Virus record (IMG/VR): IMGVR_UViG_3300025078_000023
Coordinates: 1-24,637 of that record
Strand: one strand, 5' to 3'
Length of the DNA stretch: 24,637 nucleotides
Origin: a virus
Lineage: Duplodnaviria > Caudoviricetes
The notes below the pieces were generated by a model. That model had not been told where the DNA came from. It saw only the letters and a program-made list of their open reading frames with translations, and did not search any database. Of the stretch, positions 3,705-24,637 are shown one piece after another; the stretch's first letter is position 1; every line of letters begins with the position of its first letter. Both the position numbers and the translations under genes were made by a program.

Positions 3705-6560
3705 GTGCCAAAACAAATCTGGAAAATAGATGAGTTTCATGGTGGAATTAATGATAATGCAGACCCCAGAGATATTCTAAACAATGAGTTGGCTGTCGCT
3801 GAGAATGTGGCAGTCAGCGAGTTAGGTAAATTGAGAATGTTGGGAGGAGTTGGGGATGCTCATACAGCTCCTACTGACGCAGACGTATCTGCTGGATATG
3901 GATTGTTTCAATTTAGTCATGATATGGCTGGGGCTGATGTTGTGGGAGAAGTAGCTATAGCTCCAACCGATTACTTAGCTTTATCTGATACTCTCGATAC
4001 TACTGGTGGAGATTCTAGTACTTCAGTTATAGATTTAGCTGCGGATGGAGGGGCATGGTCTGACGGAGGGGCTGATAATGTAGGAGTTACATTTAGTAAT
4101 GCAGTTAGCGGAAAAGCTGATATGTATTTTGTAGATGGAGCCCTTAGAGTTTCAGATGCTGGTTTTGATGCGACAGCTGCTCCAAAGTGGTATGGATATA
4201 TTGGAGATAATTCTAGTGGGACTGCAGCTAATAAAGTGATGATGACTACAGCTTCTACAAGCGTTTCTCTTCCTAAAAAGTTTTATGAAAGAAATTCTAA
4301 AATTGCTAAGCCATCCAGTTCTACATATGAACCTGCCGAAACTCAACCTATACATTCTGCTTCATATACAGCAGCGGCATCTGAAATAAATGCATTAAGC
4401 CTTACTTCTGCGACTAGTGCTAGTGATGCTGTTGTTCATGGTAATATAACTGGAGCAAGCGTAGATGAGGTAACAAGAGTTATTGTTGAAATAGAAGCTG
4501 TAATGAAAGATGATTCATTAAGCATAGCTGGGTCATGGGATTATGATATTAAAGTTGAAGAAGATGATGGAGGTAACGAAATAGAGATTACTGATAATAT
4601 AGGTCAAGGGCCATTAATAAATTATCATAGTTTTGAATATACTTCTAATGTTACAGTTGACCAAGATTGGAGCATTACATTAACGGTAGCCAGCATAGAT
4701 ACAGATAGCATTGAACGTATAAAAGTTAATTCTGTGGAATTTATTAAAGCATCTGGGAGCTATTCTGACCATACTGGTTTATCTAACTCATCACATAATT
4801 TTCATATTTCATTAAAACAACATAGTGGTTCAGTCACTGATGCTTTCGGATGGGGAGAGAAATGGGAAATAGGAATGAGTCTAATCTATGATGGTAATCA
4901 AGAAAGTCTCATTAGACAATTAGTAGATGAATCTGCAACAACAGATAAGGTTTTTGATTGGACAAGTTATAACGATAGACCTCCAGATATAGCAGTGTTT
5001 TGTCAATATGGTACAGGTTGGAACCCTAGAATAACTGGAGCTGTTGTTTATATGAAAAGAGTTTTAGATAAACAATGGTATCCACAATTAGAATTAGATT
5101 TTGTAAGAGGGAACGGGACTGCTATTTTTTCTGATAAAGAAAGACCTGTCCAGTTTGCGTCTCTTGACAGTGTTAATAGTTATATATTTCAATTTTATCA
5201 AGAAGATTTATTAGAACCTCAATTTGCTCTAACATACGAATCAAGAACTGGGATTAGCCATGAGGAAAAATCAATATCATCTCTTTGGAAAACATCTTGT
5301 GTTGCAAATAGAAGAGCTTATATAGGAAATTTAAAAACTGCCAATGAGGATGGTACGGTGGAATTTTTGCCAGATACTATGATTAGAAGTCTTCCAAATA
5401 AATTTGATATATTTCCTATATCTGAGAAGGTTGACGTAGCTATTAATGATGGAGAGGAAATAATTGCTATTGAGGAATTTAATGATAGGATATTGCAATT
5501 TAAAGAAAGAACCTTATATATTATTAACGCCTCTCAAGATACAGAATTTTTAGAAGATAAATTAGATTATAGAGGGGTAACTCATCAAGCATCGGTATTT
5601 AAAACAGAATATGGTATTGTTTGGGCTAATGTGCATGGATGTTTTTATTATGATGGAAGAAGGGTAAATGATTTATTAGAGAAAGATGGAAGACCTTTGA
5701 TTAAGCAATCAACGTGGGAAAGCTTTGCGGGGACTCCATTGGTAGGATATACTCCAAAAACAAAACAAGTTATAGTTGTAAGAGATTGTAGAGCATTATT
5801 TACACTTACTGGTTCAATAAATGTAACAGGCACGAACACAGCTGTACCTGGTACTGGAACGAAATTTCTTACAGAGCTTCATATAGGAGATAGCATTGTT
5901 GTTTCTGGAGAAACGAGAACAGTGTCTTCAATTACAAATAATACTACGGCAACAGTTAGTGCTGCTTGGGGTAGCGATTTAGCTAATGACGCTTCACCAG
6001 ATTGTATACCAGCAGGAGATGCATATATATATGATATGATAACAAAAAGTTGGACTAAAGCTGTTGGGGCCTTTCCAACTACTAATAAAACAAATTTTGC
6101 AATTGATTGGGCTGGGGATTTAATTTATTCAAGTCATGATGGAGATGCAACTTCTCTTTTAAAGAAGTGGACTGATACTCCAACACAAACTTTGCCTAAG
6201 GTTATTACTAAAGATATAGACTTTGGGAATCCAAGTCAAAAGAAGTCTGTTAAAAAAGTATATATATCATATAAAGGAGACGGTTCTGCGGTGACATTTC
6301 TGTATGGGAAGGATGGAATTATACCTGCCTCTAATTTTTATAGAACTGGGGCTGATGGTTCAAGTACAAATGCGACTGATAGTGCAACCCCACTTCATTC
6401 AAGCACTGTTGGTATAGATGATTGGGTATGTGCAGAATTAAAACCAGTAGCAGGTTCCATTACTTGTAATAGTTTTAGAATAGCAATAGATGGTACAGCT
6501 GGGACTGATTTTGAAATCAATGATATATCTATAGTATATAGACCTAAGTCGGTGAAATAA
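3705..6560 (+). CDS. Tail nozzle / stabilisation-like protein (951 aa; P22 gp10 / T7 gp12-like role inferred)
   Basis: N-terminal FHGGINDNADPRDI..NE...ENV....G.L and C-terminal TKDIDFGNPSQKKSVKKVYISYK...EINDISIVYR patterns, beta-rich composition, and position directly before the core proteins. Confidence 0.7.
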   Translation: MPKQIWKIDEFHGGINDNADPRDILNNELAVAENVAVSELGKLRMLGGVGDAHTAPTDADVSAGYGLFQFSHDMAGADVVGEVAIAPTDYLALSDTLDTTGGDSSTSVIDLAADGGAWSDGGADNVGVTFSNAVSGKADMYFVDGALRVSDAGFDATAAPKWYGYIGDNSSGTAANKVMMTTASTSVSLPKKFYERNSKIAKPSSSTYEPAETQPIHSASYTAAASEINALSLTSATSASDAVVHGNITGASVDEVTRVIVEIEAVMKDDSLSIAGSWDYDIKVEEDDGGNEIEITDNIGQGPLINYHSFEYTSNVTVDQDWSITLTVASIDTDSIERIKVNSVEFIKASGSYSDHTGLSNSSHNFHISLKQHSGSVTDAFGWGEKWEIGMSLIYDGNQESLIRQLVDESATTDKVFDWTSYNDRPPDIAVFCQYGTGWNPRITGAVVYMKRVLDKQWYPQLELDFVRGNGTAIFSDKERPVQFASLDSVNSYIFQFYQEDLLEPQFALTYESRTGISHEEKSISSLWKTSCVANRRAYIGNLKTANEDGTVEFLPDTMIRSLPNKFDIFPISEKVDVAINDGEEIIAIEEFNDRILQFKERTLYIINASQDTEFLEDKLDYRGVTHQASVFKTEYGIVWANVHGCFYYDGRRVNDLLEKDGRPLIKQSTWESFAGTPLVGYTPKTKQVIVVRDCRALFTLTGSINVTGTNTAVPGTGTKFLTELHIGDSIVVSGETRTVSSITNNTTATVSAAWGSDLANDASPDCIPAGDAYIYDMITKSWTKAVGAFPTTNKTNFAIDWAGDLIYSSHDGDATSLLKKWTDTPTQTLPKVITKDIDFGNPSQKKSVKKVYISYKGDGSAVTFLYGKDGIIPASNFYRTGADGSSTNATDSATPLHSSTVGIDDWVCAELKPVAGSITCNSFRIAIDGTAGTDFEINDISIVYRPKSVK

Positions 6561-6616: not shown

Positions 6617-7969
6617 ATGGCACGTGTAGGTCAATACAAAGCTCTCGGTACAAAATTAGGTGGATATAAGTCTACTTTATCTAAAATTGAATCTAAGGAA
6701 TATGGTAAAAAACATGCTGATTGGAAAGCTGCGGAGGAAATATCATTATATAACCAAATAGGTGGAACTGTTGCTAATGTCATCGGCATTGCGCAGGAAT
6801 CAAGGATTGCAAGAGAACAAGCAGATATGTATGCTAGAGAATTTGGGATTGACCCAGGTGACAAATTTGCTAAGAGAGTCACTAAGGAAGGCAAAGAGCA
6901 AAATCCATGGCTGAAATTGTCCGAAGAAGCACAAGATGAAGCATTTTGGGCAGATGAAAATATGAGTGATAAAGTAGTCGGGTTGCCTGAGACTCCAGAT
7001 TCTCAGTCATCTTTGTTTGAAGGAGAACCAGGAGAAACTTCACCTATATCTAGACAAAACATTAGTGGTGGGATTGCTGATACTGAGACAGCATATCAAG
7101 AAAGTTTAAAAAATTTTTCCCCATCTCCACGTAAGTCGGTTCATCAATTAGAGAGTGAATCTTTAAGAAGCAATTTTAAAGAGCAAGACTACGACACAAT
7201 GGGAGGAAGGACTGGGGCAACTGCTTATAAAGAAATATCTACATCTACCCCTACTATTATGAGCCAAAATCCAAATGTTTATGGGATGGAGAATGAAGCT
7301 TTAAGAAATGCAAATTCTCCTTATCTTCAAAACCCAGACGATTATAAACCATCAGGTGTATCTCCTACATTTTTACCCAATGAGGTAACTGATAATACGG
7401 CTTTTAATGCCGTGTCAGACCCTCTGTTGGGAGATTTAGATACAAGTGTTAAATCTTCTTCTGTTGAGCAAGCTATGCTAAATAAATTTGGAAAATCTGG
7501 GGCTAGTAAAGATAAGCTAGATGAATTAATTGATGTTATAGGAACTGTTGAATCTGGAAATCAAAATATTGCTCAAATTGGAGGGGGACCTGGTCGTGGA
7601 ATATTTCAATTTGAAACTGGAGAAGGAAAAGGAATGCATACAGCTTTAAATAGAATAAAAAGAATGTATACAGAAAAAAAACATCTTGGTCAAGATACAT
7701 ATCCATCTTGGATTGATGATGCTTCAAACCCAAATCACGAAAACTATTTAGATGCTACAAAATTAAGTCCTTCTCAACAAAGAGAACTTCTTATTGCAGA
7801 TTTATACATGAAAGCAGGAAGTGATGAATATTTAAAAACAGCATTTAGTAGTGGAAATTATAAAGATTTATGGTTAGAAAGTCATTGGGCTGGGGCAGAC
7901 GAAGATAAAGAATCTAAATCTGCTTATTATGATAGTGTTATGACTAAAAATAAAAGGAGAAAATACTAA
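6617..7969 (+). CDS. Internal virion protein (450 aa) with C-terminal lysozyme-like domain
   Basis: VES (E312) followed by GRGIFQF (G328), a lysozyme/lytic transglycosylase-superfamily pattern; disordered-looking middle region; no Cys. Confidence 0.65.
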   Translation: MARVGQYKALGTKLGGYKSTLSKIESKEYGKKHADWKAAEEISLYNQIGGTVANVIGIAQESRIAREQADMYAREFGIDPGDKFAKRVTKEGKEQNPWLKLSEEAQDEAFWADENMSDKVVGLPETPDSQSSLFEGEPGETSPISRQNISGGIADTETAYQESLKNFSPSPRKSVHQLESESLRSNFKEQDYDTMGGRTGATAYKEISTSTPTIMSQNPNVYGMENEALRNANSPYLQNPDDYKPSGVSPTFLPNEVTDNTAFNAVSDPLLGDLDTSVKSSSVEQAMLNKFGKSGASKDKLDELIDVIGTVESGNQNIAQIGGGPGRGIFQFETGEGKGMHTALNRIKRMYTEKKHLGQDTYPSWIDDASNPNHENYLDATKLSPSQQRELLIADLYMKAGSDEYLKTAFSSGNYKDLWLESHWAGADEDKESKSAYYDSVMTKNKRRKY

Positions 7970-8589
7970 TGGGATTTGGTTCAACAATGGCTGCGTCCGG
8001 GGCTACTTCTTTACTGGGTTCTTTCGGGACTGGGGCTTCGATAGGCGGGGCTGCTGGTGGGGCTTCTATGTTAGCTACAAATCCTATTGGATGGGCTATG
8101 CTTGGAATCGGGGCTGCCACTTCTATGCTGGGGACTGGAGCCGAAAGAAAAGCTGGTGAAAGAAAGATGGGATACATAGGTGAACAACAATCTATGTTAG
8201 CGGGAGCAGGTCAACAAGTTACTGAATTAGCTGGTATGAAAACAGAGTTAGCTCAAGACGTATATGGTACAGACCTTAATAGGTCTATGTTCCAAACTGG
8301 TCAAGACTTATTTGGATTAAAAAGACAGGGGGAAAGCGCAGCTGCTCGTACAGGATTTGCTCATTCTGGTCAAGTGCAAGGTCAAATACAAAGAGGGATG
8401 GAGGCTGGTGTCCAATCTTTTGGATTTCAAAGACAAGGTTTGCAAGATGTTCTTGGTCAAAAATTAATGGACATATCTGAATGGGAGGGTGGAGAGCAGG
8501 GCAGAATAAAATCCGAACAAGCAAGATTGAAATATGAAATGAAAGAAGCAGTAGCTCAAAAAAATAAGAAATTTCTGGGGATATTCTAA
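7969..8589 (+). CDS. Internal virion / ejection protein (206 aa)
   Basis: Gly/Ala-rich hydrophobic N-terminus (NPIGWAMLGIGAA) then Gln-rich helical region, the architecture of T7 gp14 / P22 gp7-type ejection proteins; SD AAGGAG; TAATG coupling at both ends. Confidence 0.7.
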   Translation: MGFGSTMAASGATSLLGSFGTGASIGGAAGGASMLATNPIGWAMLGIGAATSMLGTGAERKAGERKMGYIGEQQSMLAGAGQQVTELAGMKTELAQDVYGTDLNRSMFQTGQDLFGLKRQGESAAARTGFAHSGQVQGQIQRGMEAGVQSFGFQRQGLQDVLGQKLMDISEWEGGEQGRIKSEQARLKYEMKEAVAQKNKKFLGIF

Positions 8590-9926
8590 TGGCAAATGGA
8601 TTAAGTGATATATTAAGTGTATACAGGCAGGGATTGGCATCTGAAAGGCAATCCAGACAGGCTGAAATGCAGTTTGCTTTACAAGCTATGCAATTTGAAT
8701 CTGCTCAAAGGTTTAGAGAAGAAGGTAGGCAAAGAGAAGATATAATGGGAGTCTTAGATTACACCAAGAAATCAGCTGAGCAAGCTAAGAGTTTAGATGC
8801 AGGTGAAATATATTCAAGGATTAGTTCTCTCGAACCAATTATATCAGCTGATGTCGACACAGAAACTATGTCGATTACAAACTCAGATAGTATTATTAAA
8901 ACATTATCAAAACCATTAAATAAACGAGGTAAATATGGGTTTTCAATTGACCAAGCAACTCAAATAGTAACTATAGCAAATTTACATCAAATGGCTGGAA
9001 AGAATGCTAAACTTGTATCAACTGCTCAAAGGGCAACTGAAACATTTGCCAAGCAAGTCGCTAGGGACTATGAGCAATACCCCAATTCTGGACTTATGAA
9101 AGCCATGGAAAAATCTGGATTGATATATAAAGGACTTGACCCATTACAAAAAGAATTATCAGCTGATACCTATCTTGGTGTAAGGGATGCATTAATAGCT
9201 CTTGAAAATATTGATAAGGAACAATCAGAAATTGCATCTGGAGATTATAAAGTAGACACTCCAATAACTATTGGGGATGTGTCTGAATCAGATGTTGGTC
9301 AAATGGATTGGAAACAACTAGCTGTACCTATCGCTAGGGAACTAACAGAGCCTTCACCTACTCAAGTAGACTTGCAATCTATTGATTTAGGAGCAACAGA
9401 TGAAGATATAATTAAATCTTTAGATTTCTTAGACCCTAGCAAAACTGCAGAGGTGAGGGCGGAACTAGAGAGTTTAAATAAAAATATTTCAAAGAAAAGA
9501 GCAAAATTAGATATACTAGCAGTTGAAAGGGATTCTCTGGTTGCTGATTATGAAAAATGGAACGAAGAATTTAATTGGCAAAAAAAGCAAGAGAAGGCAG
9601 CTGGTGTGGCTGGAGATGCTCAATCTGAGCAGAAACATTCTAAAGAAGCTGAAAGATTAGCTAAATTAATAGGACAAAGAAGAGGTGAGGAGACAACCTC
9701 TAAAGCTGCAAAAGAATTTGAAATACAAGAAAATATAGAAATCTTTCCTGCTGGGTATACAAGAAAAGCCTTTGAGGAACCAGGGGCAATTGGGAAAGCA
9801 TTTGGTAAATTCTTTGATGTACCATCTAAAGAATGGGCAGAAGAAACAAAGGGAGTTCAAATCTTACAACTTTCAAATGATATAAGAAAACTAGTGAAAC
9901 AAAGAGAATCTCTTAGCGGTCGGTAG
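8589..9926 (+). CDS. Internal virion protein (445 aa), helical / coiled-coil
   Basis: Coupled to the upstream gene; Q/E/R-rich N-terminus; no Cys; directly precedes the giant ORF. Confidence 0.65.
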   Translation: MANGLSDILSVYRQGLASERQSRQAEMQFALQAMQFESAQRFREEGRQREDIMGVLDYTKKSAEQAKSLDAGEIYSRISSLEPIISADVDTETMSITNSDSIIKTLSKPLNKRGKYGFSIDQATQIVTIANLHQMAGKNAKLVSTAQRATETFAKQVARDYEQYPNSGLMKAMEKSGLIYKGLDPLQKELSADTYLGVRDALIALENIDKEQSEIASGDYKVDTPITIGDVSESDVGQMDWKQLAVPIARELTEPSPTQVDLQSIDLGATDEDIIKSLDFLDPSKTAEVRAELESLNKNISKKRAKLDILAVERDSLVADYEKWNEEFNWQKKQEKAAGVAGDAQSEQKHSKEAERLAKLIGQRRGEETTSKAAKEFEIQENIEIFPAGYTRKAFEEPGAIGKAFGKFFDVPSKEWAEETKGVQILQLSNDIRKLVKQRESLSGR

Positions 9927-9928
9927 AA

Positions 9929-12900
9929 ATGGCTGACAACCTTACTCTTAGATTAAAAGAGGAATTAGAAAAAAGACACGGGAAAATAGTCTCTGAGGCT
10001 GATGTATCCTCGTTTTTACAATCCCAAGGTCTTTTATCTGGTGGGGCCGCTGTTCCACAGACCCCACAACCTATACAATCCCCACAATCTGCCCAAGCTC
10101 CATCATATGAAGGAGTACCACCTTGGGAAATTCCTCAAAATTTACCAGACCAAGAATCTAAAAGTAGTCTTATAAATGCAGTCGGGGCTGGTCTGTGGAC
10201 TTTCTTTGATGTAGCATCTTTTGGAGCTCTCGGTGTTGCAGCTGGTTACGAGGAAAAACAAGGTGATGAGTCTTTTCGTTCAATGATTGACTTTGAAGAC
10301 CCAATGGCTAAATGGACTGGTGCGGTAGGTGGATTAGCTGGGTTTGTAAAAGGAGCTCCAATAAAAATAGGTGGTAGAGTAATGACAAAGATTGCTCAAC
10401 CATTTATAAAAGCAGCTGGATACAAAACTGTAGGTGGAGTATCAAAACAAATGCTTAAAAGGGGGGCTGAACTTGGAGTTGATAAAACAGCAGCTAAGGA
10501 AATTACTCATCATTATTCTAATTTAGCTAGGAGAGCACAAACTGATGTTAATTTTGCAAAAACATTTGGAGAGAAAGCCACTAAATTATTAGTTAATTAT
10601 ACAGATGATGCTCTGCAAATGGGGAAAATAAGTCCAGCTGAATCTGCTGCAATTAGAAAAATGTTTGGCGAAAACTATATGAAGAGACCTTTGCAGGATT
10701 TCATAGGTTTGATGGGGACTAGAATGGCCAATCCTAGACTTGCAAGAGTAGCTGGCTCTTTACTTAATGAATCTATAATGTTTAGTGCGATTGATACTAT
10801 TTTTGAAGGAGTGTCTGTATTAGATGACCATCATTTTGATTGGACAGCTCCAGTTTGGGGGGCTTTTACTGGAGTAGCATTTTCTCAATTACAATGGTTA
10901 AATCCAGTTGGTAAAGGTTCTAAATGGAAACTTGACTTTAAACAGGGAATAAGAGGAGCTTTTGGTAAAAAACCTCAATATCATACATTTAATGACCAAC
11001 AATTAAAAGGGACTGCTAGATTCTTTGGTGAATCACTTGATAGATTTGCAAAAGAGGAACTCAAAACTGTTAAAAATCATGTTGTAAACATAGAAGGCAA
11101 AACTATTGATTTAAGTTCTGATAATGTTTTATTACAAGTTGCTAAGAAATTTGGAGGGTATCAAGCAGGTAAAGATGCTTTAATAAGATATTTTGAATCT
11201 CAAAGAAAATTCTTTGGTAAAGAAATTATGAAATATTCTACTGGAGAGGGGCTTGTTAATATACAAAAGAATTGGTTTAGAATGGCTGCTGGTGGAGTCG
11301 CTTTTAATGCCCATACTCTTGCAGAAATGGCTTTACATGGGACAACGCCAGGGTTCCATGATATGTTACCTCACTTTCTTATAGGCGCCTTTTTACAAGT
11401 TGGTAAAAATCCAGCTAGTTTTGATTTAAACTCTGGAAGAATGAATCAATTTCGTAGTAATCTAAAAATGCTTGGTATAGATTCAAAGCAATTAAATTAT
11501 ATACCATCTCTTGCTAGGACTCCTAATAGATTTAATAATGGTGTAAATAGACAAACTCATCCAGAAACATTAAGGATGTATGAAGAACTTGGAATTGGAA
11601 GTGATATTATTGAACCAACTGATATAAGCCTTAAAGAAGGGGATATAAGTATTAACATTCAAGGTAATTCAAAGTATGAAAAAATTGCTCAAAGAGTTGC
11701 CCCTCAATTCAGACATGGTAAAAGTCCAGATGCTATAAGTACAAAAGATGCTCAAAGACTTGTAGATGCTTTTGAAGCCGAGACTGGAGTTACGAAATTA
11801 GAAGATTATGACAGACATTTTGATAGTTTAGCTGTTGAAAATACAGCTCTATTAGAAAGAGATATTCCTAGTCTTGTTAAACAGGTAATGCTTGCTGATA
11901 AAGGCCAAGAATTGGGAATGAATGAAAAAACTAAAGAAGGTAAAACAATTATTCAAGGCCCTGATGTTATTATGGCTTCTGAAGAAATTTATCAATTAGC
12001 AAGAGAAGGTAAACTTGATTTTATAAAAGATTCTGAAGGGAATACTATTACTGATGGTACTTTAGCATTAGAAAAATTAAATGAAGCTCTTGGTGGATAT
12101 TCTCAAGTTTTTAGGACAAGTAGACTTTTAAATGAAGTAATTGATTTACCTTCTGATAAAATGACAAAAACAGTTCATACATTAGAAACTATTAAAGATA
12201 TTTATGAAAGTATTACTTTAGTAGAAGCTAAAATAAATGATGCTTTTCCAAGTAAAATGTCTTATTCAGATGCTTTCACATTTAAAAACTCAGCCTCAGA
12301 TTATATTATGATACTTGCAAATAATATAAATTTAAAAAATTCAGCTATGGTTAGAGATATTTTTAGTAAAGATTATGGCCAAAGAGATGAATTAATTTCT
12401 TTAATGAGAGCAGCTGGAATTCTTGAAGGAGATTTAGTTAACCCTCTATTAAGAAAGAGTATTGAAAATATTGAGTTTATAAAAGATGATTCTGTTCCAG
12501 AGAACGAAAGAGAAGCTAGGGAAGGTGAACTTAGACGAGGATTAAAGAAAATATTACAATTGCAATCTGTGACTGGAGGTTACGAAAGGTCTGAAGGTGT
12601 TGATAAAAAACCAATTGAAATTGCAGATGCAGAAAAATTAATAGGATTTATATCTGGAGCAGGGTTAAAAGATATATCTAATACGTATGATTGGATGCAT
12701 CAAGAAACTATAAACTTTATCATAAGAGATAAAATTGGTTCTTCAAATCTTGAAATGCAGGAAATGACTGCATTTTTTGAAATAGCAGAAGCAGGGATGG
12801 CTAATTTTAATTTAGATATGAAGTCAGGTCGTCAAGGTTTTGATATAAAATTATTAGATACAACTTTAGTTCCAGAATCAGTTATGGATGCAGCTATTGA

Positions 12901-15900
12901 ATACAATGATTTTGTTAGAAAGATTATTGCAAAAAGTGGAGGGTTAATAGAACCCGCTGGTAAATCGATAGCACAAAGTAAATATGATATACTTGGTTTA
13001 AAAAATCTGTTACCAGAATATAGAAAAAATGGTACACTTAATCGAGATAAAGCTCAAGAGTATTTATATGATTTTATGGAAATACTTCCAAAAAATAGTC
13101 AAATAATGCATGATGTGGCGCAATACACTTTAGAAGGAGGGAGCGCCGATGTTCTTAATTGGTTAATAAGAGCTGGAGTAATGAAATATAGCAATAAATC
13201 TGGTAAACAATATGAGGTTATTGTTGAAAAATTTTCACCTGAATTAGAAGCTAAATTAAAAAATAAAATAAAAAAGAATGGTTTTGATGAACATTATATA
13301 AAAGATGTGATTTCATCAGAGGAACAAGCTTCTCGAGCTGCTCATGGCGATGAAAGATTTATGGTTGACATGGATTCTAAATTTGATATGAATACATTTT
13401 TAGAAAAATATAATATTGAAGGTGTAGATTATTCTGTTAAATCTAAAGAAATGAAACGAGAAGTGTTTGAGAGTTTATTTTTATCTGAGGTAAATGACCC
13501 AAAAGATAGAATACCAGCTGCTCAAATAGTAGAAAATGTTTTAAAAAGAATAGAGATAAAAAATACTACTACTAATAAATATGTAAAATACTCAGAAATT
13601 GATGCAGCCCAAAAAGAATTTGTTAAGAAAGAGATTGTTGGCGATTTAGTAAAATTGATTGCAAGTCAATATAATACAACAAAAATAAATTTTATTAAAA
13701 TGGAAAATGGGCAAATTAAAGAATCCACTAAATTTCAACAAGAAACAAGATTAAATACTCTTTTAAGAGAATTAGAGATATCTCCTGTTATAATTGAAAA
13801 AGAGGTGGTTGATTATGAAATGTTTGAAGGTAGAATACAAAGGGTATTTAAGAACGTATTTACCGATACCACAGATTTACCAAGATGGCAAAGAACCTCT
13901 ATAATAAAATTACACAAAAAATTAAAAGATGATTTAAAATCAAGAGAAACTTCTTTTGGGTTAACGAATCAAGGTGGAATGGAAATTTTTCAAATATCTA
14001 AAGATACTGCCCCAATTGCTATAGCAAGACAAGATTTTCCGAATATGCATGCTAAATATATTGAATTTGCGGATTGGGCTTTAAAACAAAGAAATATAGA
14101 TGGAGGAGTCAAAGGTCAAATACAAAAAATAATTGATAAAATTAACGAACCTACTAAAATAGTTAATAATGAAGAAATTGGTAATCCGACTACTTTTGAT
14201 TATCAATATATGTTATCACAAATTGTGTTTAACGATATGTTAAGAGGTAGTAAAAAAACTTCAGCTTTAGAAGATTTCCTTAATGGATTTGATGTAAGTA
14301 AAACTATGGGTCGTGTAAAACTATATGATTCTAAAAACTTTGTTAAACATGATAGAAGTCTATTAAGCAGTATGATGGAACTTTATAAAAAAGAATTAAA
14401 TGACAATAAGACTCACGATGCAATCGGAAAAATAATGCAACAAAATGGATTTAATGTTGCTATATGGAATGATAAGGATTATGCGAATGTTAATACAGAA
14501 GTTAGAAGTATATTAAAAGAAAATGGATGGAGCCAACAAAAAATAGATAAATTTTTTAAGGATGTTATCGGTGACGCCCATGATAAGTCATCATCATTTG
14601 ATAGCATTGCCTTTGTTCCAATAGGTACGATGAGATATGCTCATTCAATGATGGGGAATAATCCAAATTCTACAAATCCAGTAAAACCTGCTATTGCTTC
14701 TGGTGGTAGAAGTGGTCAGCTTTTACTTGGAAAAACTTTATTTGTTTATGACAAATCATTAGATACTTTTTTCAAAAATAATGATAATGTTGATATTCTA
14801 TTGGCGTCTACTGGAGCTAAATCTTTTAATAAGGGGTTGGATAGAGATGGGTTGGATAGTAGTCTAATAAATAAACCTTATAACCAGATAAATTCTACTA
14901 CAGTTTTAGGAAAACAAAAGATAAGAAAGATTCCTATTGATGCTGTTGGATTTAAGCCTGAGGTTGACAAGCCTTTTAAAGATGCTGTTGAATCTACAAG
15001 TGATTATAACTATATGACCAATGAAGAATCTAAGAATATGTTTAACGAAAACTATCGTGATGATATTATAGATGCTGTTGATGGTATGAGAAAAGAAAAC
15101 ATTAGTGGAGTCACAAGAAGAAGATTTATTTTAGATATATTTGGTAAAGATGCTTTTAGTGTTAGTCCAGAATCAGGTGGAAGTCAGCATTTATCAAACA
15201 TAGCCAAATTTGTTTCAATGCATAGGGATGCCGACCCAATGTCTTATAGTGAAAATATTGTCAAAAATAAAATTTATAATCATTATATAAATAGAATTTT
15301 AAATGGCAAAAGAACTACTATAAAAATAGAAAATGGTAATGATGTTAGATATGGAGGGCAAGCCCCCGTTATACAAGTTGCAGATGCTAGACATAGATTA
15401 AAGCCTACTATTGTAAATGAAGAAGGCAAGATGGAGATGCGTGGAGAAATAATGATTGGGCATCATGAGAGATTTTCAAGCGTTTCTGAAATTGTAAAGA
15501 GTGGAAGACAAATGATTCTTGTTGATGGTGCGAAAACAATAGACCCAAAAGAATTCTTTGGTAGTTATGAAACAAAAAAAGAAGGTAAAAAGTATTATTG
15601 GAATGATTTGTTAGAGGCTGGTTTAGATTTGGGTACTTTGCATGACCTTATTGAAGCTGGGAAAACTGGAGTAACTCCCTATAGCAAAAATCTACAAATT
15701 GGAGTAGTGACAAATAGAAAACCTCATACAAGACCTAATGATACTGCTATTTTAGGATTAAAAGGATTTCTTGATAAAGCATATGGAAAGTCTGCTCTTG
15801 TAAATAGTCTTGATATTGTCAATTTATTTGAAGGTGATTATGATGCTGATAAAGTTGATTACTTTTATGGAGCTAGAAAAGCTGTTCACGAACATGCTAA

Positions 15901-18529
15901 AAGGGTATCTGATTTATTTGTTCAAGCAATTGACCCTGATTATTTAAAAATAGAAACTAACTTTAGTTGGGCAGATGACCCATCGAAAGTTGCAGAAAAT
16001 ATAGAAAGAATGGCTGCAAGTAGTGACCTTGCAAAAAAGACAATTGGGGTAGTCCAAAAAATTCCTAGAAAATTAGGGTATTTAAATAATATTGCTATGG
16101 ATGGGACGAATGACCCTGGTCTTAAAATAAGATTCGGTAAAGATAAAAAACCTAAAATATTATTTATGACTCCAGGCAAGAAAGGTCAAGAATATAGAAT
16201 TACAATAGATTTTGATAATATGGATTATTATACTAGAGCTGCTTTAGAAACTCAATATATGCTTGATATGGGTGGGGGTGTAAACCCAAAACTGATGAGA
16301 GATGTATCTGAGTGGAGTGATGAATTTTTATTTCCTCCAGAAAAAGAAGGTATTACTCCTTCTCAAGTTAGAAAAATGGGTATAGGATTTATTAATAGTA
16401 ATATAAGAAGAAAAACTCCATCTAAAAGAATAAGAATATTTAGGAAATTTGATAAGGAAGGAAATGAATTAGTATTAAATGACCTTGAAAAAAGCATGAT
16501 TAAAACTATGATGTCTGAATATGGTAAGTTTTTAAATGTCGCAGGCAATAAAACATTTAATCAAAAAACAGGTGAACAAAGGTCTGTGACTTATGATAAT
16601 GTATACGAAGCTTCTGATGCATTTTATAATTTTAATAGAGATTTAAGTAAGTCACTTTATTATAAATTAAGATATAAAAAAGATTCAGCTGGTAATCCAT
16701 TTTATAACGATGGTCAATTTAAAAATATGTTTGGTGTGCAAAAAAGCACTTATCAAAAATATGATAAAAAACTAAAGAAAATGGTAGATAAGACTGTTTA
16801 TAAACCTGGAGCTGGTGGCATATTTGTTGATGAGTCTCAGCAAATCAAAAATAATAGTGTAGCAATTTCTGAGGGTAAAAGAGGTGGGGTTTTAGAGAGG
16901 TCTTTGCATCGTGTTTGGGATGCGGATATATTTGGTAATAGAAAAGACGCTGGATTAGAAGCATCCTTTAATGACACTGGTAATATGGTACAATATATGA
17001 ATAGATGGTATGACCAATTAAGAACAGGAGATATAAGTGAATATTCTGGTTCTGTTGATGCTTTGCAAGGTAATATAATGAAAACTGTTACTGACTATAA
17101 TTCAGCAGCTTATTACATAGGTAATCTTAAACAAAAAATTGTAACTACTCAATACAGGACAGATTTACCATATAAGAGTAAAATGTCTATTATTAATAAA
17201 TTAAATAAAGTTATTAGAGGTATTGAGTATAAACTAGCAGACGAAATTGTTCCTCCAGAATATAGGGAGACTTATAAAACTAAAGATTTAAAACCATTTA
17301 AATTTATTCCAGTTAAAGGAAAAGATGTTGACGAAGGACAAGTACAATTTAATACAATTTATTCTATATTGAAACTTCAAAGAGAGTCTGGAGTTGTTTT
17401 ACCACCAGGTGGGCATGAACTTCTTAAATATTTAAAAGATATAAGAAGACAGTATTATAGCAATCAAGAAAATTTAGGAGACATATTTAAATATAAAGAA
17501 AAAACTGTATTAAATAAAGAAAATTTAGATTTTCTTGCTAATATGCCACCCCAGAGTACATTTAGAGAAGTAGAAGATGCTATTCTGCATCAAGGGCTAA
17601 GGGAATATAGTCTTCCTTTTATACTTGAATTTATGGCTACTGCTCAAAATAAAAGACAAATAGGTATTCAAGGTGGTAGATTGGTTGCTATGCCTTTTTC
17701 TAAAAGTGGTAGGTTTAGAAGGGGGTATCAGTTTCTTACTGGTATCGTAAATGCTCCAAAAGGTAATGATAAAAATGTTATGGCAAATTATGAATCTAAT
17801 GAAACATTTCTTGTTGGAAATCTGTTAAGGACTCTTCAAATTACTGAGGCAAATTTTAGAAGATTTCAAAATAGAAGATATGATAAAAGAAATTTTTCTG
17901 ATTCAAATTATATGGAAAATATAGGGACTATAGAAAAACCAGTATATTTATCGTTAGAACATATAAGATTACCTAGTTTTGGTAAAGAATTAGAGAGTGT
18001 AGTTGGTGATTATGCTTCTATACGTTGGGCTAGAGATACTAATAGGATTAGTTCTGGATTTGATAATATGAATGATTCTGTCCTTAGTTATTATAGAGAT
18101 ATAATGGAAGTGGCAGGCAAAGGGCCTGAATTTGAAAAATATGTTGAAATTATGCATGGTTTAAAACAGGATATGATTAAAAATAAAACTATTGACCCAA
18201 TAAAATATTTAGCTACAAAAGCACAAATAGAGAGTGATATTTCAGAAATAGCCAATAAAGTATTAACAGGTGGAATAGATACATCTAAAAACCCAGTTGC
18301 TTATAAAAGATTATTACAAAACCCAATGCATATTATTAATGGTGGAGATGGAGAATCTGGATTTTTTAGGGGAATAAGTCTTGGGACTAAATCTGGATAT
18401 AGTGCAAAAAGATTAAGAGAGGTTGTTAAAGTTCATCAAGAATTATCTAAAGGTGAGACAGAAACAAGATTTAGAACAGAAAAAAGTGAGAAAGATTTAG
18501 ATAGATTTCTTGGGAATTGTAAATTATAG
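9929..18529 (+). CDS. Putative virion-packaged single-chain two-barrel (DPBB) DNA-dependent RNA polymerase (2866 aa)
   Basis: VVTNRKP (R1930)...LFEGDYDADK (D1970/D1972/D1974) parallels beta-prime LLNRAP...NADFDGD. Upstream FDS (D1558), LGKT (K1602) and STGAK (K1631) are candidate motifs of the other barrel. Lies in the virion core cluster. Confidence 0.85.
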   Translation: MADNLTLRLKEELEKRHGKIVSEADVSSFLQSQGLLSGGAAVPQTPQPIQSPQSAQAPSYEGVPPWEIPQNLPDQESKSSLINAVGAGLWTFFDVASFGALGVAAGYEEKQGDESFRSMIDFEDPMAKWTGAVGGLAGFVKGAPIKIGGRVMTKIAQPFIKAAGYKTVGGVSKQMLKRGAELGVDKTAAKEITHHYSNLARRAQTDVNFAKTFGEKATKLLVNYTDDALQMGKISPAESAAIRKMFGENYMKRPLQDFIGLMGTRMANPRLARVAGSLLNESIMFSAIDTIFEGVSVLDDHHFDWTAPVWGAFTGVAFSQLQWLNPVGKGSKWKLDFKQGIRGAFGKKPQYHTFNDQQLKGTARFFGESLDRFAKEELKTVKNHVVNIEGKTIDLSSDNVLLQVAKKFGGYQAGKDALIRYFESQRKFFGKEIMKYSTGEGLVNIQKNWFRMAAGGVAFNAHTLAEMALHGTTPGFHDMLPHFLIGAFLQVGKNPASFDLNSGRMNQFRSNLKMLGIDSKQLNYIPSLARTPNRFNNGVNRQTHPETLRMYEELGIGSDIIEPTDISLKEGDISINIQGNSKYEKIAQRVAPQFRHGKSPDAISTKDAQRLVDAFEAETGVTKLEDYDRHFDSLAVENTALLERDIPSLVKQVMLADKGQELGMNEKTKEGKTIIQGPDVIMASEEIYQLAREGKLDFIKDSEGNTITDGTLALEKLNEALGGYSQVFRTSRLLNEVIDLPSDKMTKTVHTLETIKDIYESITLVEAKINDAFPSKMSYSDAFTFKNSASDYIMILANNINLKNSAMVRDIFSKDYGQRDELISLMRAAGILEGDLVNPLLRKSIENIEFIKDDSVPENEREAREGELRRGLKKILQLQSVTGGYERSEGVDKKPIEIADAEKLIGFISGAGLKDISNTYDWMHQETINFIIRDKIGSSNLEMQEMTAFFEIAEAGMANFNLDMKSGRQGFDIKLLDTTLVPESVMDAAIEYNDFVRKIIAKSGGLIEPAGKSIAQSKYDILGLKNLLPEYRKNGTLNRDKAQEYLYDFMEILPKNSQIMHDVAQYTLEGGSADVLNWLIRAGVMKYSNKSGKQYEVIVEKFSPELEAKLKNKIKKNGFDEHYIKDVISSEEQASRAAHGDERFMVDMDSKFDMNTFLEKYNIEGVDYSVKSKEMKREVFESLFLSEVNDPKDRIPAAQIVENVLKRIEIKNTTTNKYVKYSEIDAAQKEFVKKEIVGDLVKLIASQYNTTKINFIKMENGQIKESTKFQQETRLNTLLRELEISPVIIEKEVVDYEMFEGRIQRVFKNVFTDTTDLPRWQRTSIIKLHKKLKDDLKSRETSFGLTNQGGMEIFQISKDTAPIAIARQDFPNMHAKYIEFADWALKQRNIDGGVKGQIQKIIDKINEPTKIVNNEEIGNPTTFDYQYMLSQIVFNDMLRGSKKTSALEDFLNGFDVSKTMGRVKLYDSKNFVKHDRSLLSSMMELYKKELNDNKTHDAIGKIMQQNGFNVAIWNDKDYANVNTEVRSILKENGWSQQKIDKFFKDVIGDAHDKSSSFDSIAFVPIGTMRYAHSMMGNNPNSTNPVKPAIASGGRSGQLLLGKTLFVYDKSLDTFFKNNDNVDILLASTGAKSFNKGLDRDGLDSSLINKPYNQINSTTVLGKQKIRKIPIDAVGFKPEVDKPFKDAVESTSDYNYMTNEESKNMFNENYRDDIIDAVDGMRKENISGVTRRRFILDIFGKDAFSVSPESGGSQHLSNIAKFVSMHRDADPMSYSENIVKNKIYNHYINRILNGKRTTIKIENGNDVRYGGQAPVIQVADARHRLKPTIVNEEGKMEMRGEIMIGHHERFSSVSEIVKSGRQMILVDGAKTIDPKEFFGSYETKKEGKKYYWNDLLEAGLDLGTLHDLIEAGKTGVTPYSKNLQIGVVTNRKPHTRPNDTAILGLKGFLDKAYGKSALVNSLDIVNLFEGDYDADKVDYFYGARKAVHEHAKRVSDLFVQAIDPDYLKIETNFSWADDPSKVAENIERMAASSDLAKKTIGVVQKIPRKLGYLNNIAMDGTNDPGLKIRFGKDKKPKILFMTPGKKGQEYRITIDFDNMDYYTRAALETQYMLDMGGGVNPKLMRDVSEWSDEFLFPPEKEGITPSQVRKMGIGFINSNIRRKTPSKRIRIFRKFDKEGNELVLNDLEKSMIKTMMSEYGKFLNVAGNKTFNQKTGEQRSVTYDNVYEASDAFYNFNRDLSKSLYYKLRYKKDSAGNPFYNDGQFKNMFGVQKSTYQKYDKKLKKMVDKTVYKPGAGGIFVDESQQIKNNSVAISEGKRGGVLERSLHRVWDADIFGNRKDAGLEASFNDTGNMVQYMNRWYDQLRTGDISEYSGSVDALQGNIMKTVTDYNSAAYYIGNLKQKIVTTQYRTDLPYKSKMSIINKLNKVIRGIEYKLADEIVPPEYRETYKTKDLKPFKFIPVKGKDVDEGQVQFNTIYSILKLQRESGVVLPPGGHELLKYLKDIRRQYYSNQENLGDIFKYKEKTVLNKENLDFLANMPPQSTFREVEDAILHQGLREYSLPFILEFMATAQNKRQIGIQGGRLVAMPFSKSGRFRRGYQFLTGIVNAPKGNDKNVMANYESNETFLVGNLLRTLQITEANFRRFQNRRYDKRNFSDSNYMENIGTIEKPVYLSLEHIRLPSFGKELESVVGDYASIRWARDTNRISSGFDNMNDSVLSYYRDIMEVAGKGPEFEKYVEIMHGLKQDMIKNKTIDPIKYLATKAQIESDISEIANKVLTGGIDTSKNPVAYKRLLQNPMHIINGGDGESGFFRGISLGTKSGYSAKRLREVVKVHQELSKGETETRFRTEKSEKDLDRFLGNCKL

Positions 18530-18538
18530 GATAAAATA

Positions 18539-21262
18539 ATGGCTGTTACTGGAAAATGTTTAATTAATGCGAGAGATTTAGGAGAGGAGATTAAAAAATG
18601 GTCTAATCTTCCTAAAGTTAAAAAAACTTTTAAGAATCCTTATGAGGCTGCTTTTAGAATGGTTGAAACTGAGTTTTTAATGCCTCTTAGTGATATTGGA
18701 TTAAGAGATGTTGATATTACAAAAGGGCAAGTACAAGCTTTTAAGTTAAGACTTAGACAATTAAATCAAAGTATAGATAAAGGTAACCTTGGAAGTACCT
18801 TTGCAACACATATGTGGCAAACATCTCATTTTGGTAAAAGAGACCCTATACTTGGTTCAGTTTTAAGAGATTCTCAAAAATCAGAATTTCACAATCAGGG
18901 AAGTATATCTGCTAACAAGACAGTAATGCATGGAATAATGAAAGAAATTGAATTAGAATCAATAGATAGAGATATAATAAAAGGAGGGGAAACGTTTGCT
19001 GGGTTTAGTACTAGGAAAGCTCAAAAACAAATGAAAAAGATGGATATAATGTTACAAGAAGAAATTGTTAAATGGAGGAATGGAGAAGAACCAAATACTT
19101 CAAAGATTTCAGAAATAGATAATAAAATTGATAAAATGATTTCTAATAATTATTTACAAGTTTATGAAGATTTACGTCATATTATTGAAAATGATTTAGG
19201 GAGAATAGAGCAACAAATATATAATAAAATGAATGATAATGATAAATTAAAAGTTAGGAATGGGGAAAAGATTATACCAATAACTCAAAATGATTTAGCA
19301 ACTGCTAGAACGAAAGATGGTAATCAAGTCAGTAGACATATGTTTAATGCTTTAAGGGGTTATAAGTCTTTGATGGATAATTTATATGGACAACTTAGAC
19401 ATGGAGTAGATGCTAAAATAGATGGTCTTCTTATAAGAATGCAAAATTTTAAAGGTGAAATGAATTCTAGTAAATTAGAAAGTATTAGAAAAAAATTAAG
19501 AGGGAAACTTATGCCTAAATATGAAGGTAATGGATTTTTCCCTCACTATACAAGAGATTTAAGTGTTGATTTTATGCAAGGATTAATGCCTCATTTAGAT
19601 AAATTACAAGAATCTGTGAATCCATATATAAAAACTAAAGGAAAACAACAGACAATATCTCAAGTAATAGATGGTGTAGATACTTTTATTAGTGACCATA
19701 CTAAAAAGAGAAGTAAAGATTATTCTTATAGTAAAAACTTTCTTGGTTCAGTACAAAATTATATGTCAGATGTGAATAGATTTAATCATAAAGCTTTTAT
19801 GGATAAACATATGTTAAATGGATTAACTGCTGTAGAAAGCATATATAAACTTGATGGGGAGGCTAAGGGATATGGAGAAAACGTTGTTAGTTATTTAACA
19901 GATATGCATTATGCGGCTAATGGGAGTGCTGATATTCCTCGGACAACTAGAGCTTTAATGAGAACTATGTTAGGATTTGAGTTTATATCAAAGTTGGGAT
20001 ATAACCCAAGAGGTGCAGCTAGAAATCTTATGCAAAGATTGTTAGATTTTGTAGAAATGGGTGCAGGTGCAAATAAAAAATCTAAAGAAGTAATAGATAG
20101 AATAGCTGGTATTAATGAAGAGTTTTTTGAAACAGAACTAAAGAAAGTTGGATTGTTATTTGATGAAGGAGCTCCTCAATTAATAGAAGCTGGAGTTGGA
20201 CGTGGGGCTGCTTTCCACAAACAATTAGAATATGACCCAGTTACTAATAAACATAAACTTGTTAAAGAAACTATATTAGAAAAAGTAGCAGATAAAGTAG
20301 GTTGGGCTGCTAGTAAGGCAAGTTATTTACATAGAAGAGCTGAGAATTCTAACCGTAAAAGAACATTTAAATTATCTTTTGCTCAAATGTATGATTGGTT
20401 AGATGGCCCAAAATATAGAGAAGTTTTAAAAGAAAAAAATCCAAATATTTCAGATGCTCAAGTAAATGCTGCTATTAAAACAAAGGCAAGTAACTACGCT
20501 ATTAATATGACAGTATTAAATCATTTTGATTATGCTGAATATGCAAAGTCACCATTTATGCGTACAAAACATGGTAGATTTTTAGGTCAGTTTCAACATT
20601 ATAGTTTAGAATTTTTTGAACGTAATGCTCGTATATTAAGAGAAGCAAAAGGAGATTTAAAAGCTGGTTATTTACTTCCAGGCCAAAATGCTCAAGGATT
20701 AGCAAAAGCATATAGAATGTTTTTGGCTTATTATGCAGCCCCAGCTATTGCAGCTATGTTAACTGGTAAGACTTTTACAAATTTAATTGAACATGATACA
20801 TTTGAAAGACTTAAACAATTAGCTATTGCATTCACAGGCGATGAAGAAGAAGTAAAAGAAGCTTTTTATGGAAAAGGGCCTGTTGTTTCTACATTTGGTG
20901 GCCCTCTTGTATCAGACTTACTTGATATAGGTCAGATGTTAGATTTTATTAATTTAGATGAAGATGGTGTTCTTCATAAACTTACTGGTATGGAAAAACA
21001 TGACCCTTCTAATCAATCAACAAAAACAACACAAATAATAAGACTTTTAAATACTGCACTTGGTAGAACTGTTGAAAGACATATTCCTTTAATTTTTGGA
21101 GAGAAATCTGGTATGGGTTTGGGGATAGCTGTTCAACAAGAATTTGGACTTTATCCTACCGCTGAAGCTAGAAAAGTGCAAAAAGCTTATAAGAAATCAA
21201 GAGCTAAAATACTTCCTAAAGATGTAGAAGCTGCTTTGCAGGCTCTCGAAAGAAGACAGTAG
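18539..21262 (+). CDS. Large internal virion / ejected protein (907 aa)
   Basis: Helical; C-terminal NHFDY...RFLGQFQHY plus hydrophobic FLAYYAAPAIAAMLTG and TFGGPLVS, reminiscent of the C-termini of large ejected phage proteins; SD AGGA; single Cys at position 7. Confidence 0.7.
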   Translation: MAVTGKCLINARDLGEEIKKWSNLPKVKKTFKNPYEAAFRMVETEFLMPLSDIGLRDVDITKGQVQAFKLRLRQLNQSIDKGNLGSTFATHMWQTSHFGKRDPILGSVLRDSQKSEFHNQGSISANKTVMHGIMKEIELESIDRDIIKGGETFAGFSTRKAQKQMKKMDIMLQEEIVKWRNGEEPNTSKISEIDNKIDKMISNNYLQVYEDLRHIIENDLGRIEQQIYNKMNDNDKLKVRNGEKIIPITQNDLATARTKDGNQVSRHMFNALRGYKSLMDNLYGQLRHGVDAKIDGLLIRMQNFKGEMNSSKLESIRKKLRGKLMPKYEGNGFFPHYTRDLSVDFMQGLMPHLDKLQESVNPYIKTKGKQQTISQVIDGVDTFISDHTKKRSKDYSYSKNFLGSVQNYMSDVNRFNHKAFMDKHMLNGLTAVESIYKLDGEAKGYGENVVSYLTDMHYAANGSADIPRTTRALMRTMLGFEFISKLGYNPRGAARNLMQRLLDFVEMGAGANKKSKEVIDRIAGINEEFFETELKKVGLLFDEGAPQLIEAGVGRGAAFHKQLEYDPVTNKHKLVKETILEKVADKVGWAASKASYLHRRAENSNRKRTFKLSFAQMYDWLDGPKYREVLKEKNPNISDAQVNAAIKTKASNYAINMTVLNHFDYAEYAKSPFMRTKHGRFLGQFQHYSLEFFERNARILREAKGDLKAGYLLPGQNAQGLAKAYRMFLAYYAAPAIAAMLTGKTFTNLIEHDTFERLKQLAIAFTGDEEEVKEAFYGKGPVVSTFGGPLVSDLLDIGQMLDFINLDEDGVLHKLTGMEKHDPSNQSTKTTQIIRLLNTALGRTVERHIPLIFGEKSGMGLGIAVQQEFGLYPTAEARKVQKAYKKSRAKILPKDVEAALQALERRQ

Positions 21263-21318: not shown

Positions 21319-21516
21319 TTATGATTTTGCGAAATTAAAAGACCTTTCCATAACTTTACCAAATTCCATTATACCTTTCAACGTAGAATAAGTAATTATT
21401 TCTTGTTCTTCTGTCGTAGATTTTTCAGATAGCTCCATTAGCCTTAAATTTGCTTCTAATATCATTCTTAACATTTCATAGTTTGTTGAGTTTTCATTTG
21501 CGACATTAATTTTCAT
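21319..21516 (-). CDS. Hypothetical protein (65 aa)
   Basis: Overlaps the RuvC-like gene end, has a GGAG-type SD upstream, and is last in the minus-strand operon. Confidence 0.65.
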   Translation of the reverse strand: MKINVANENSTNYEMLRMILEANLRLMELSEKSTTEEQEIITYSTLKGIMEFGKVMERSFNFAKS

Positions 21517-21997
21517 TTGCTCTTCTCCAAACCGCTATACATATTGCGTCTGCTGTATATAAAGTTGTTTTTTCATAAAAGCATTTTGCTATTTTTTTCA
21601 ACTCTTGTTTCCTCTCTCTTTTTTCTTTAGGTAGGTGGAAGTCGTGTTGCCATTTTTTTGGCATTACTAATTCATATTCTATATTATTAGATTCTAATAT
21701 TCCCATCCAAGCTCCATAATTTGTTCCAAATTTAAAAGCAGAACTTCTTCCGTCAGTTGGAAATGCATGAACTTTTTCTAGCACACATATATAAGAATTA
21801 TTATTACTTATTTTTTTTATTAATTCAGCCATTTCCTTAAATGTTGGCGGGCATTTATACGCTTCAACAGAATCTTCACTAAGTATAGCTATCCCCCCAG
21901 ACTTGCCTGGGTCAATTGCTAGATATTTTTTCTTTGAAGAGATTATTACTTTCTTTATCTTTTTTGTATCTTTTTGATTGCGTCGCTTTTGTACCAT
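21506..21997 (-). CDS. ruvC: RuvC-like Holliday junction resolvase
   Basis: YLAIDPGKSGGIA, VLEKVHA, SAFKFGTNYGAW, P..WQ, ADAICIA: the RNase H-fold D-E-D catalytic pattern of phage RuvC-like proteins. Start uncertain (ATG 21997 preferred over 22015). Confidence 0.88.
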   Translation of the reverse strand: MVQKRRNQKDTKKIKKVIISSKKKYLAIDPGKSGGIAILSEDSVEAYKCPPTFKEMAELIKKISNNNSYICVLEKVHAFPTDGRSSAFKFGTNYGAWMGILESNNIEYELVMPKKWQHDFHLPKEKRERKQELKKIAKCFYEKTTLYTADAICIAVWRRANEN

Positions 21998-22148
21998 AAT
22001 ATTCTCTAATTGCACATTTCTTGCATATAATAAATTTATCAGTTTTTAGTGGAGATACATAGTTATACATATCAGTATAACCTAACTTTCCACACATCCT
22101 ACATTCTCTATATTCAGGTTTTAATATTCGATTTATTCTCGGTATCAT
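21912..22148 (-). CDS. Small zinc-finger protein (about 78 aa)
   Basis: CRMC...CKKC pair; likely start ATG 22148 overlapping the helicase 3' end. Confidence 0.65.
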   Translation of the reverse strand: MIPRINRILKPEYRECRMCGKLGYTDMYNYVSPLKTDKFIICKKCAIREYYGTKATQSKRYKKDKESNNLFKEKISSN

Positions 22149-23900: not shown

Positions 23901-24637
23901 TCAGAACATCTCTATTTGAGGAGGTTCTGTATCATAATTTGTTATTACTAGTTCAATAAAGTATTTTACATCATCTTCATTTCTACCAGCATATTGAGTT
24001 TCTATTTCATAAATATTATAATCAGAATATATATCTCTAATTACTTCTCTATCATCATAGCTAATCATAAATTTAGCACCAGCCTTATCTATGTAATCAA
24101 CACACTCTATCATATCTTCATGTTCTTCAATACCAAAGTCTGCCATATAATAATCACCTCTTTCAGTTGCTATTATATATGGTGGGTCTAAATACCACAT
24201 ATCACCTTTTTTTGGTTTATAATCTACGACTAGTTTTCTGAAATCTAAATTTTCAATTGTAGTATCATTAAAGAATGTTCTAGAGTATTTTAAGTTCTCT
24301 ATTATCTCAGATGTATTCCAAGCAGAGATTTTAGAAAAACTTCCATAGGGTATTTTATTAAATGCATTCCTAATACAATAAAAATATTGTGCAGCTCTTT
24401 CTACGTCTGGAATATTAATATCCTTTGTTGAATGAACAGCAGATTTTGCATCATTAAATAATGTTCTGCTCTTAGGAAGCCATAGTAAGGTATCAATTAA
24501 TTTTTCTAACTGCGATACAACACAAGTATATAGGTTCACAATATCGTTATCTATATCATTTACGATGCTATATCTAGCTTTCTTCTTGCGAAAGAACATA
24601 CTTAGTCCACCTGCGAAAACCTCTACATACCTTTCAT
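23901..24637 (-). CDS. Dam/D12-family DNA adenine methyltransferase, 5'-truncated by the window edge
   Basis: Frame is open to the window edge, adding ERYVEVFAGGLS (SAM-binding motif I); then VNDID, IENLDF, catalytic YLDPPY, MISYD and ELVITNY. Confidence 0.93.
   Translation of the reverse strand, partial: ERYVEVFAGGLSMFFRKKKARYSIVNDIDNDIVNLYTCVVSQLEKLIDTLLWLPKSRTLFNDAKSAVHSTKDINIPDVERAAQYFYCIRNAFNKIPYGSFSKISAWNTSEIIENLKYSRTFFNDTTIENLDFRKLVVDYKPKKGDMWYLDPPYIIATERGDYYMADFGIEEHEDMIECVDYIDKAGAKFMISYDDREVIRDIYSDYNIYEIETQYAGRNEDDVKYFIELVITNYDTEPPQIEMF

Follow-up and report, generated by a model that had tools for sequence, protein, structure and literature searches.

The virus record IMGVR_UViG_3300025078_000023, analysed here over its whole length of 24,637 bases (the window), encodes a 2866-amino-acid (aa) protein, predicted to be a virion RNA polymerase, and a 907-aa partner protein directly downstream. 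Each contains a single cysteine, and the two cysteines lie at the facing ends of the two proteins. This cysteine pair is real, strongly selected, and widespread among related loci. The polymerase and its partner are likely joined at these ends by an inter-chain hetero-disulfide. The overall reading, held with moderate confidence, is that this disulfide replaces a peptide bond, and that the pair leaves the capsid as one chain, the polymerase towing its partner. The features concerned are the following, in window positions.

9929..18529, + strand: 2866-aa protein, presumed cargo of the virion; predicted two-barrel RNA polymerase extended by a long N-terminal region; single cysteine, Cys2864
15830..15850, + strand: catalytic motif EGDYDAD, polymerase residues 1968-1974
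18518..18520, + strand: codon (TGT) of Cys2864, the third residue from the polymerase C-terminus
18539..21262, + strand: 907-aa all-alpha protein, encoded by the final presumed cargo gene; single cysteine, Cys7
18557..18559, + strand: codon (TGT) of Cys7

A conserved pair of terminal cysteines

The two genes are the last of five consecutive genes (6617-21262), the presumed cargo proteins of which comprise 4874 aa. A recount in the open reading frames (ORFs) agreed exactly with the first-pass annotation, which had reported no cysteine in the upstream 450-, 206- and 445-aa proteins and only Cys2864 and Cys7 in the remaining two. The two cysteine codons are separated by 39 bases. Two randomly placed cysteines would both lie at most 7 residues from one of the four junctions with a probability of about 2e-5, by a post-hoc estimate; conservation is the stronger test. 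Exact copies of both proteins are present in a public protein collection, in clusters of 27 and 34 members, and the pair is thus not an assembly error.

Related loci were found with search patterns that held no cysteine. From 177 loci, 62 duplicate junctions, 11 loci without a partner and 6 with a cut partner were removed, leaving 98 pairs. Clustering at 70, 50 and 35% identity groups these into 62, 34 and 12 clusters, respectively. The conservation of the terminal cysteines in homologous gene pairs, proposed earlier as a test, was found throughout: the final 11 residues of the upstream protein and the initial 20 of the partner ORF each contain a cysteine in all 98 distinct pairs. No further cysteine occurs in their 266,070 polymerase and 87,427 partner residues. 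The ordinary level of cysteine was gauged on a 951-aa tail protein of the window, with 238 cysteines in 37,495 residues (0.63%) across 39 relatives. The free ends are devoid of cysteine, both at the polymerase N-terminus (0/83) and at the partner C-terminus (0/91). The residues flanking the terminal cysteines are not conserved, only the cysteines themselves.

The same pattern is seen when each family is followed separately. Every one of 56 polymerase homologues, including that of the window and with identities down to 27%, has a cysteine in its last 6 residues, and 55 of them have no second one. The partner homologues have a cysteine in the first 12 residues in 89 of 95 cases, the other 6 being pieces of 534-783 aa that start inside the family, and the Cys7 column is invariant in alignments of 66 and 83 rows. 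More remote partners were drawn from the best 150 of 433 profile matches, from which 81 new proteins of at least 850 aa were taken; 78 of these carry a cysteine in the first 30 residues, and only two other cysteines were counted in their 75,235 residues. The rule also applies to G001, whose 3253-aa polymerase has little more than the catalytic region in common with that of the window.

The start codon of the partner overlaps the cysteine codon of the polymerase in 18 of 53 junctions; at overlapping junctions (L073-L097 and others) the two cysteine codons are 11-14 bases apart. In locus L031, a 218-aa cysteine-free gene (9253-9909, G002) stands between polymerase and partner, and both cysteines are retained. 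The terminal cysteines are not an effect of overlapping DNA, since 35 of the 53 junctions lack the overlap and both cysteines survive gene insertion as well as a switch of strand, described below. The inserted gene of L031, which had no match in a PHROG scan, possibly encodes extra cargo. Locus L020 has a cysteine-free gene of similar size downstream of the partner. In L016 and L135, the polymerase or partner gene is split by frameshifts, which are probably assembly errors, and the terminal cysteines are still there.

Identity of the two proteins

Its modelled fold identifies the 2866-aa protein as a two-barrel RNA polymerase. A structure model of residues 1449-2368 (predicted local distance difference test, pLDDT, 81.8) was searched against the PDB, with 6VR4, the virion RNA polymerase of phage phi14:2, as the best match (E 3e-10), followed by QDE-1 and RDR2. 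Asp1970, Asp1972 and Asp1974 of the catalytic motif are invariant across 51 aligned homologues, and some remote relatives carry DFDGD or DFDID instead. The model and the motif together provide the two-barrel fold and the DxDxD signature of the crAss-type polymerase module. HHalign found no significant match between the polymerase alignment and the phi14:2 sequence taken singly. Pfam and PHROG scans matched neither the 2866-aa nor the 907-aa protein, and sequence searches of the PDB found nothing for either. In the ESM Atlas, only viral clusters without names were found, the nearest named entry being an RNA-dependent RNA polymerase at 0.81, which is a lead only.

The model of the 907-aa partner is all-helical (pLDDT 70). 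Foldseek and VIA-align searches of the PDB returned nothing more specific than helical bundles (best Z 7.2). The model also matches the predicted C-terminal parts of large polyvalent or internal virion proteins, 60 of them at E <= 0.001. HHalign of the partner profile against a 13-row alignment of the crAss gp65/gp49 type gave a weak match (E 1.4e-4, probability 53%, 290 columns), and hmmsearch gave no match between the 907-aa protein and this family. The profile match is a weak indication that the partner may be a remote relative of gp65/gp49. Cellulophaga phage phi19:3, which was among the fold-search matches, has no such cysteine pair in the five proteins checked. A role of the partner as a membrane pore was rejected, as no segment of it scores above 1.3 (Kyte-Doolittle, 19 residues); by the same measure, the polymerase has one weak transmembrane-like segment only. 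Gene order, the relatives, and the loss of cysteine suggest that both proteins are present in the virion.

Split and fused genes in crAss-like phages

The rule was examined in 16 crAss-like genomes, namely phi14:2, crAss001, and 14 others hand-picked for family spread among 60 listed of 147 tblastn matches. Where the module consists of three genes, the first protein has a C-terminal cysteine, the polymerase has one at both ends, and the third protein has one at its N-terminus. In phi14:2, these are Cys1797 of 1797, Cys3 and Cys2179 of 2180, and Cys3, respectively. The first gene of crAss001, DAC17 and IAS lies on the opposite strand, and its C-terminal cysteine is still present. When the first two genes are fused, as in five Suoliviridae and Flavobacterium phage Fpv1, only the last cysteine pair remains; the 4401-aa fused protein of Fpv1 has a single cysteine, at position 4400. 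When the last two genes are fused, as in four Intestiviridae, the first pair alone is left. The fused junctions could be placed only roughly, by BLAST offsets, and some fused gut crAss-like proteins contain scattered internal cysteines, none of which forms a shared pair.

Thus, as read from these sequences, the cysteine rule moves with gene fission and fusion. The first-pass annotation had asked whether the giant cargo proteins of crAss-like phages keep the pair and fused homologues lose it, and this is what was observed: the pair is kept at open junctions, strictly in 19 of 22 by hand count, and no conserved pair exists where genes are fused. The gut crAss-like giants (L108-L121) have up to a dozen internal cysteines, in contrast to none in the approximately 353,000 residues of the window family, which may reflect a weaker oxidising pressure in anaerobic hosts.

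Crassvirales genomes are near 100 kb. The records related to the window measure 44-111 kb, most of them near 50-60 kb, and tblastn against 50,697 GenBank phages gave no match; for these two reasons the window phage was not filed as Crassvirales.

A proposed disulfide in place of a peptide bond

The assignment of a hetero-disulfide draws on the matched cysteines at facing ends, their absence from free ends, their loss at fusions, and one solved case, that of cyanophage A4 (Anabaena phage A-4L). Provided that the bond exists, a towing role for it is likely. Towing is favoured over a static staple because strictly terminal cysteines suit a load-bearing link between unfolded chains.

In the proposed mechanism, both proteins would be packed in the capsid core, with the polymerase C-terminus docked non-covalently on the N-terminal part of the partner, comparable to A4 gp27 and gp26. 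The two thiols would oxidise after the virion has left the reducing cytoplasm upon lysis, or in the periplasm, and the purging of all other cysteines would leave a single possible bond. Non-covalent docking probably precedes the bond, which would form after docking and lysis. On infection, the partly unfolded proteins would traverse the tail from N- to C-terminus, the bond towing the partner behind the polymerase. It would survive the oxidising periplasm and be cut in the cytoplasm by the thioredoxin and glutaredoxin systems of the host. We infer from the pattern both that the partner is towed during ejection and that reduction in the cytoplasm releases it; release is plausible, is the step with the least support, and is not needed, since natural fusions exist.

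The earlier proposal that a disulfide chains the two proteins is supported in part. The bond is likely, and one between such terminal cysteines is known from A4, another podophage (PMC12002296). Only two of the five presumed cargo proteins can be joined, as the 450-, 206- and 445-aa proteins cannot belong to any disulfide chain. That the bond also orders packaging, as had been suggested, is unlikely. Phage assembly occurs in a reducing cytoplasm, and a conserved thioredoxin-family gene was not found, with 2 of 20 related records containing one and this being the only oxidoreductase family searched.

Several points weigh against the towing disulfide. No bond has been observed for the window phage or for any crAss-like phage. 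Neither sequence nor fold comparison linked the window proteins to A4 gp26, so that A4 serves as an analogy, and its ring-stabilising bond (PMC12002296) is as compatible with a static staple as with towing. The pair is also kept in gut crAss phages, whose hosts are anaerobic, although internal cysteines are tolerated there. Among the crAss-like junctions, cr273 (L117 2248-19632) is the loosest case, its last cysteine lying 49 residues before the end, ahead of a low-complexity tail; in C0531BW4 the cysteine is Cys24, counted in an ORF whose annotated start is not an ATG; and in IAS, the sequence of which contains ambiguous bases, an additional break has a cysteine on one side only. Three of the 81 long remote partners from the best 150 of 433 matches lack an N-terminal cysteine as called. 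Finally, no fusion of polymerase and partner was found in the window family, with no fused form longer than 1797 aa, although this is a weak test. The cr273 locus is recoded, with 36 in-frame TAG codons.

The same hetero-disulfide might instead act, with neither towing nor release, as a static staple that secures the packed core once the cell has lysed or keeps the two proteins in one working complex after their ejection. This is unlikely, although it is the most serious of the alternatives. The A4 bond is described as adding stability to a helix-in-cleft contact within a packed ring (PMC12002296), disulfides stabilise the tail of crAss001 virions (PMC10172136), and, as the natural fusions show, the polymerase can be joined to either neighbour for good, which makes release dispensable. 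A staple, however, could occupy any site of an interface, whereas the cysteines never lie further than about 10 residues from the facing termini and are absent from the free ends.

Binding of a metal by the thiols, such as a zinc clasp in which two pairs would provide four cysteines, or another non-disulfide link that closes in the cytoplasm and guides packaging, is improbable. Such a clasp would solve the problem of timing that a reducing cytoplasm or an anaerobic gut host poses, and fits the lack of a conserved oxidase, for which only the thioredoxin family was looked at. Nevertheless, no conserved histidine, aspartate, glutamate or second cysteine is located near either cysteine, and the sole solved case, A4, was modelled as a disulfide (PMC12002296).

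Slightly less probable again is that each cysteine acts independently, in disulfides of homo-oligomers, in a bond to the portal or tail, or as a site of lipid or other modification. Cargo proteins are multi-copy and tail proteins do carry cysteines, but almost all systems have equal numbers of N- and C-terminal cysteines, both are lost where genes are fused, and the free ends never bear one. The last alternative, by which the cysteines are survivors of a general purge of ejected proteins, kept by codon overlap or as loose ends, can appeal to known cysteine depletion (PMC11445570) and to the overlapping junctions, but is refuted by the complete conservation in the 98 pairs, the bare free ends and the junctions without overlap, the more so as overlap never explains the partner's own cysteine.

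Neighbouring genes

The window contains tail genes, then the five consecutive genes, and then replication genes on the opposite strand. Two further features bear on the cysteine count.

3705..6560, + strand: 951-aa tail protein with 7 cysteines, the control for normal cysteine content; weak PHROG tail match
6617..9926, + strand: three ORFs of 450, 206 and 445 aa, cysteine-free by count; presumed small ejection proteins

The 951-aa protein is presumably "nozzle"-like, a label suggested by gene order. The role of the three ORFs is presumed from gene order; in related loci, the genes at the same position are mostly without cysteine. The 450-aa protein matches phrog_3108 (function not known) at window 7472-7687, corresponding to residues 286-357, a segment which we take to resemble a lysozyme/transglycosylase motif. 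Elsewhere, an Arc-like repressor (2199-2633), a Holliday junction resolvase (21506-22015) and a DnaB helicase (22114-23448) were matched, and a cut ORF at 23901-24635 is presumably a DNA adenine methylase.

Significance and comparison with known systems

One conserved bond offers a cheap test, in cultured phages (phi14:2, crAss001, A4), of how giant cargo proteins exit a podophage head in order. The cysteine rule also supplies a sequence criterion by which ejected proteins could be recognised in genomes without annotation, and the order of their ejection read. The bond type is already known from one structure, that of A4 (PMC12002296), and the window is a two-member version of the rule in an uncultured marine lineage. 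A general terminal-cysteine rule was not found in a search of mostly openly accessible literature, in which A4 alone (PMC12002296) represents the bond and DEV/N4 alone (PMC11445570) the depletion. A wider speculation, possible but tilting towards the doubtful, is that in many podophages split giant ejected proteins are mended by terminal cysteines into a redox-switched pseudo-polyprotein. This would tow the polymerase through the tail, with the order of the proteins set in advance, until host reductases cut the bond, possibly activating the polymerase only inside the cell. The self-inhibited phi14:2 polymerase was purified with reductant (bioRxiv 2020.03.07.982082), and the bond may therefore bear on its activation.

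The crAss-like module (phi14:2 gp67-gp66-gp65; crAss001 gp47-gp50-gp49) shares the predicted two-barrel polymerase and the terminal-cysteine rule with the window, the two-gene layout of which is of the Suoliviridae/Fpv1 type. The partner of the window has about 900 aa compared to 1350-2000 in crAss-like phages, and the window pair is without internal cysteines. The three module proteins are sometimes fused, and a text search of the accessible preprint gave no mention of cysteine (bioRxiv 2020.03.07.982082). In crAss001, cargo is expected to leave partly unfolded, with an ejection order probably set by packing and mutual interactions and nothing more stated; cargo cysteines are not mentioned in the accessible main text (PMC10172136).

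The N4-like phages also resemble the window in the near-total loss of cysteine from giant ejected proteins. Their cysteine suppression is tied to passage through the periplasm (N4 gp50-52, DEV gp71-73; PMC11445570). By sequence count, N4 gp50-52 are cysteine-free, including the 3500-aa polymerase. The N4 polymerase is of the T7 type. N4 thus has a single 3500-aa chain without cysteine, whereas the window pair keeps one conserved cysteine on each side of a gene break.

In AB toxins, an enzyme is tied to its delivery chain by one disulfide that is reduced in the cytosol. The likeness is an analogy only, as the toxin chains are usually cut from a single precursor by proteolysis and those of the window come from two genes. 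The cultured cyanophage Lbo-JY46 of Leptolyngbya (L201 4429-17335) has the same kind of cysteine pair as the window, Cys1552 of 1552 and Cys4 of 2748, with a gp65-like C-terminal part, and a pattern search for a polymerase motif turned up none.

The closest parallel is provided by A4. The pre-ejectosome cryo-electron microscopy structure contains a disulfide between gp27 Cys1715 and gp26 Cys5, with the C-terminal helix of gp27 seated in a cleft of gp26; the bond is said to stabilise a packed ring of five gp27/gp26 pairs, and a chain reaction on ejection is proposed (PMC12002296). In its accessible text, the bond is not treated as conserved or redox-controlled (PMC12002296). HHalign gave no sequence link between the window proteins and gp26/gp27 (E 0.65), no A4 chain was among the fold matches of the 907-aa model, and no polymerase motif was found in gp27. 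By sequence count, Cys1715 is the sole cysteine of gp27 (1717 aa) and Cys5 that of gp26 (1114 aa). A4 resembles the window in having adjacent, co-oriented cargo genes with one cysteine each, third from the C-terminus in gp27 and near the N-terminus in gp26, and the window pair shows the same arrangement of one cysteine per protein at facing termini.

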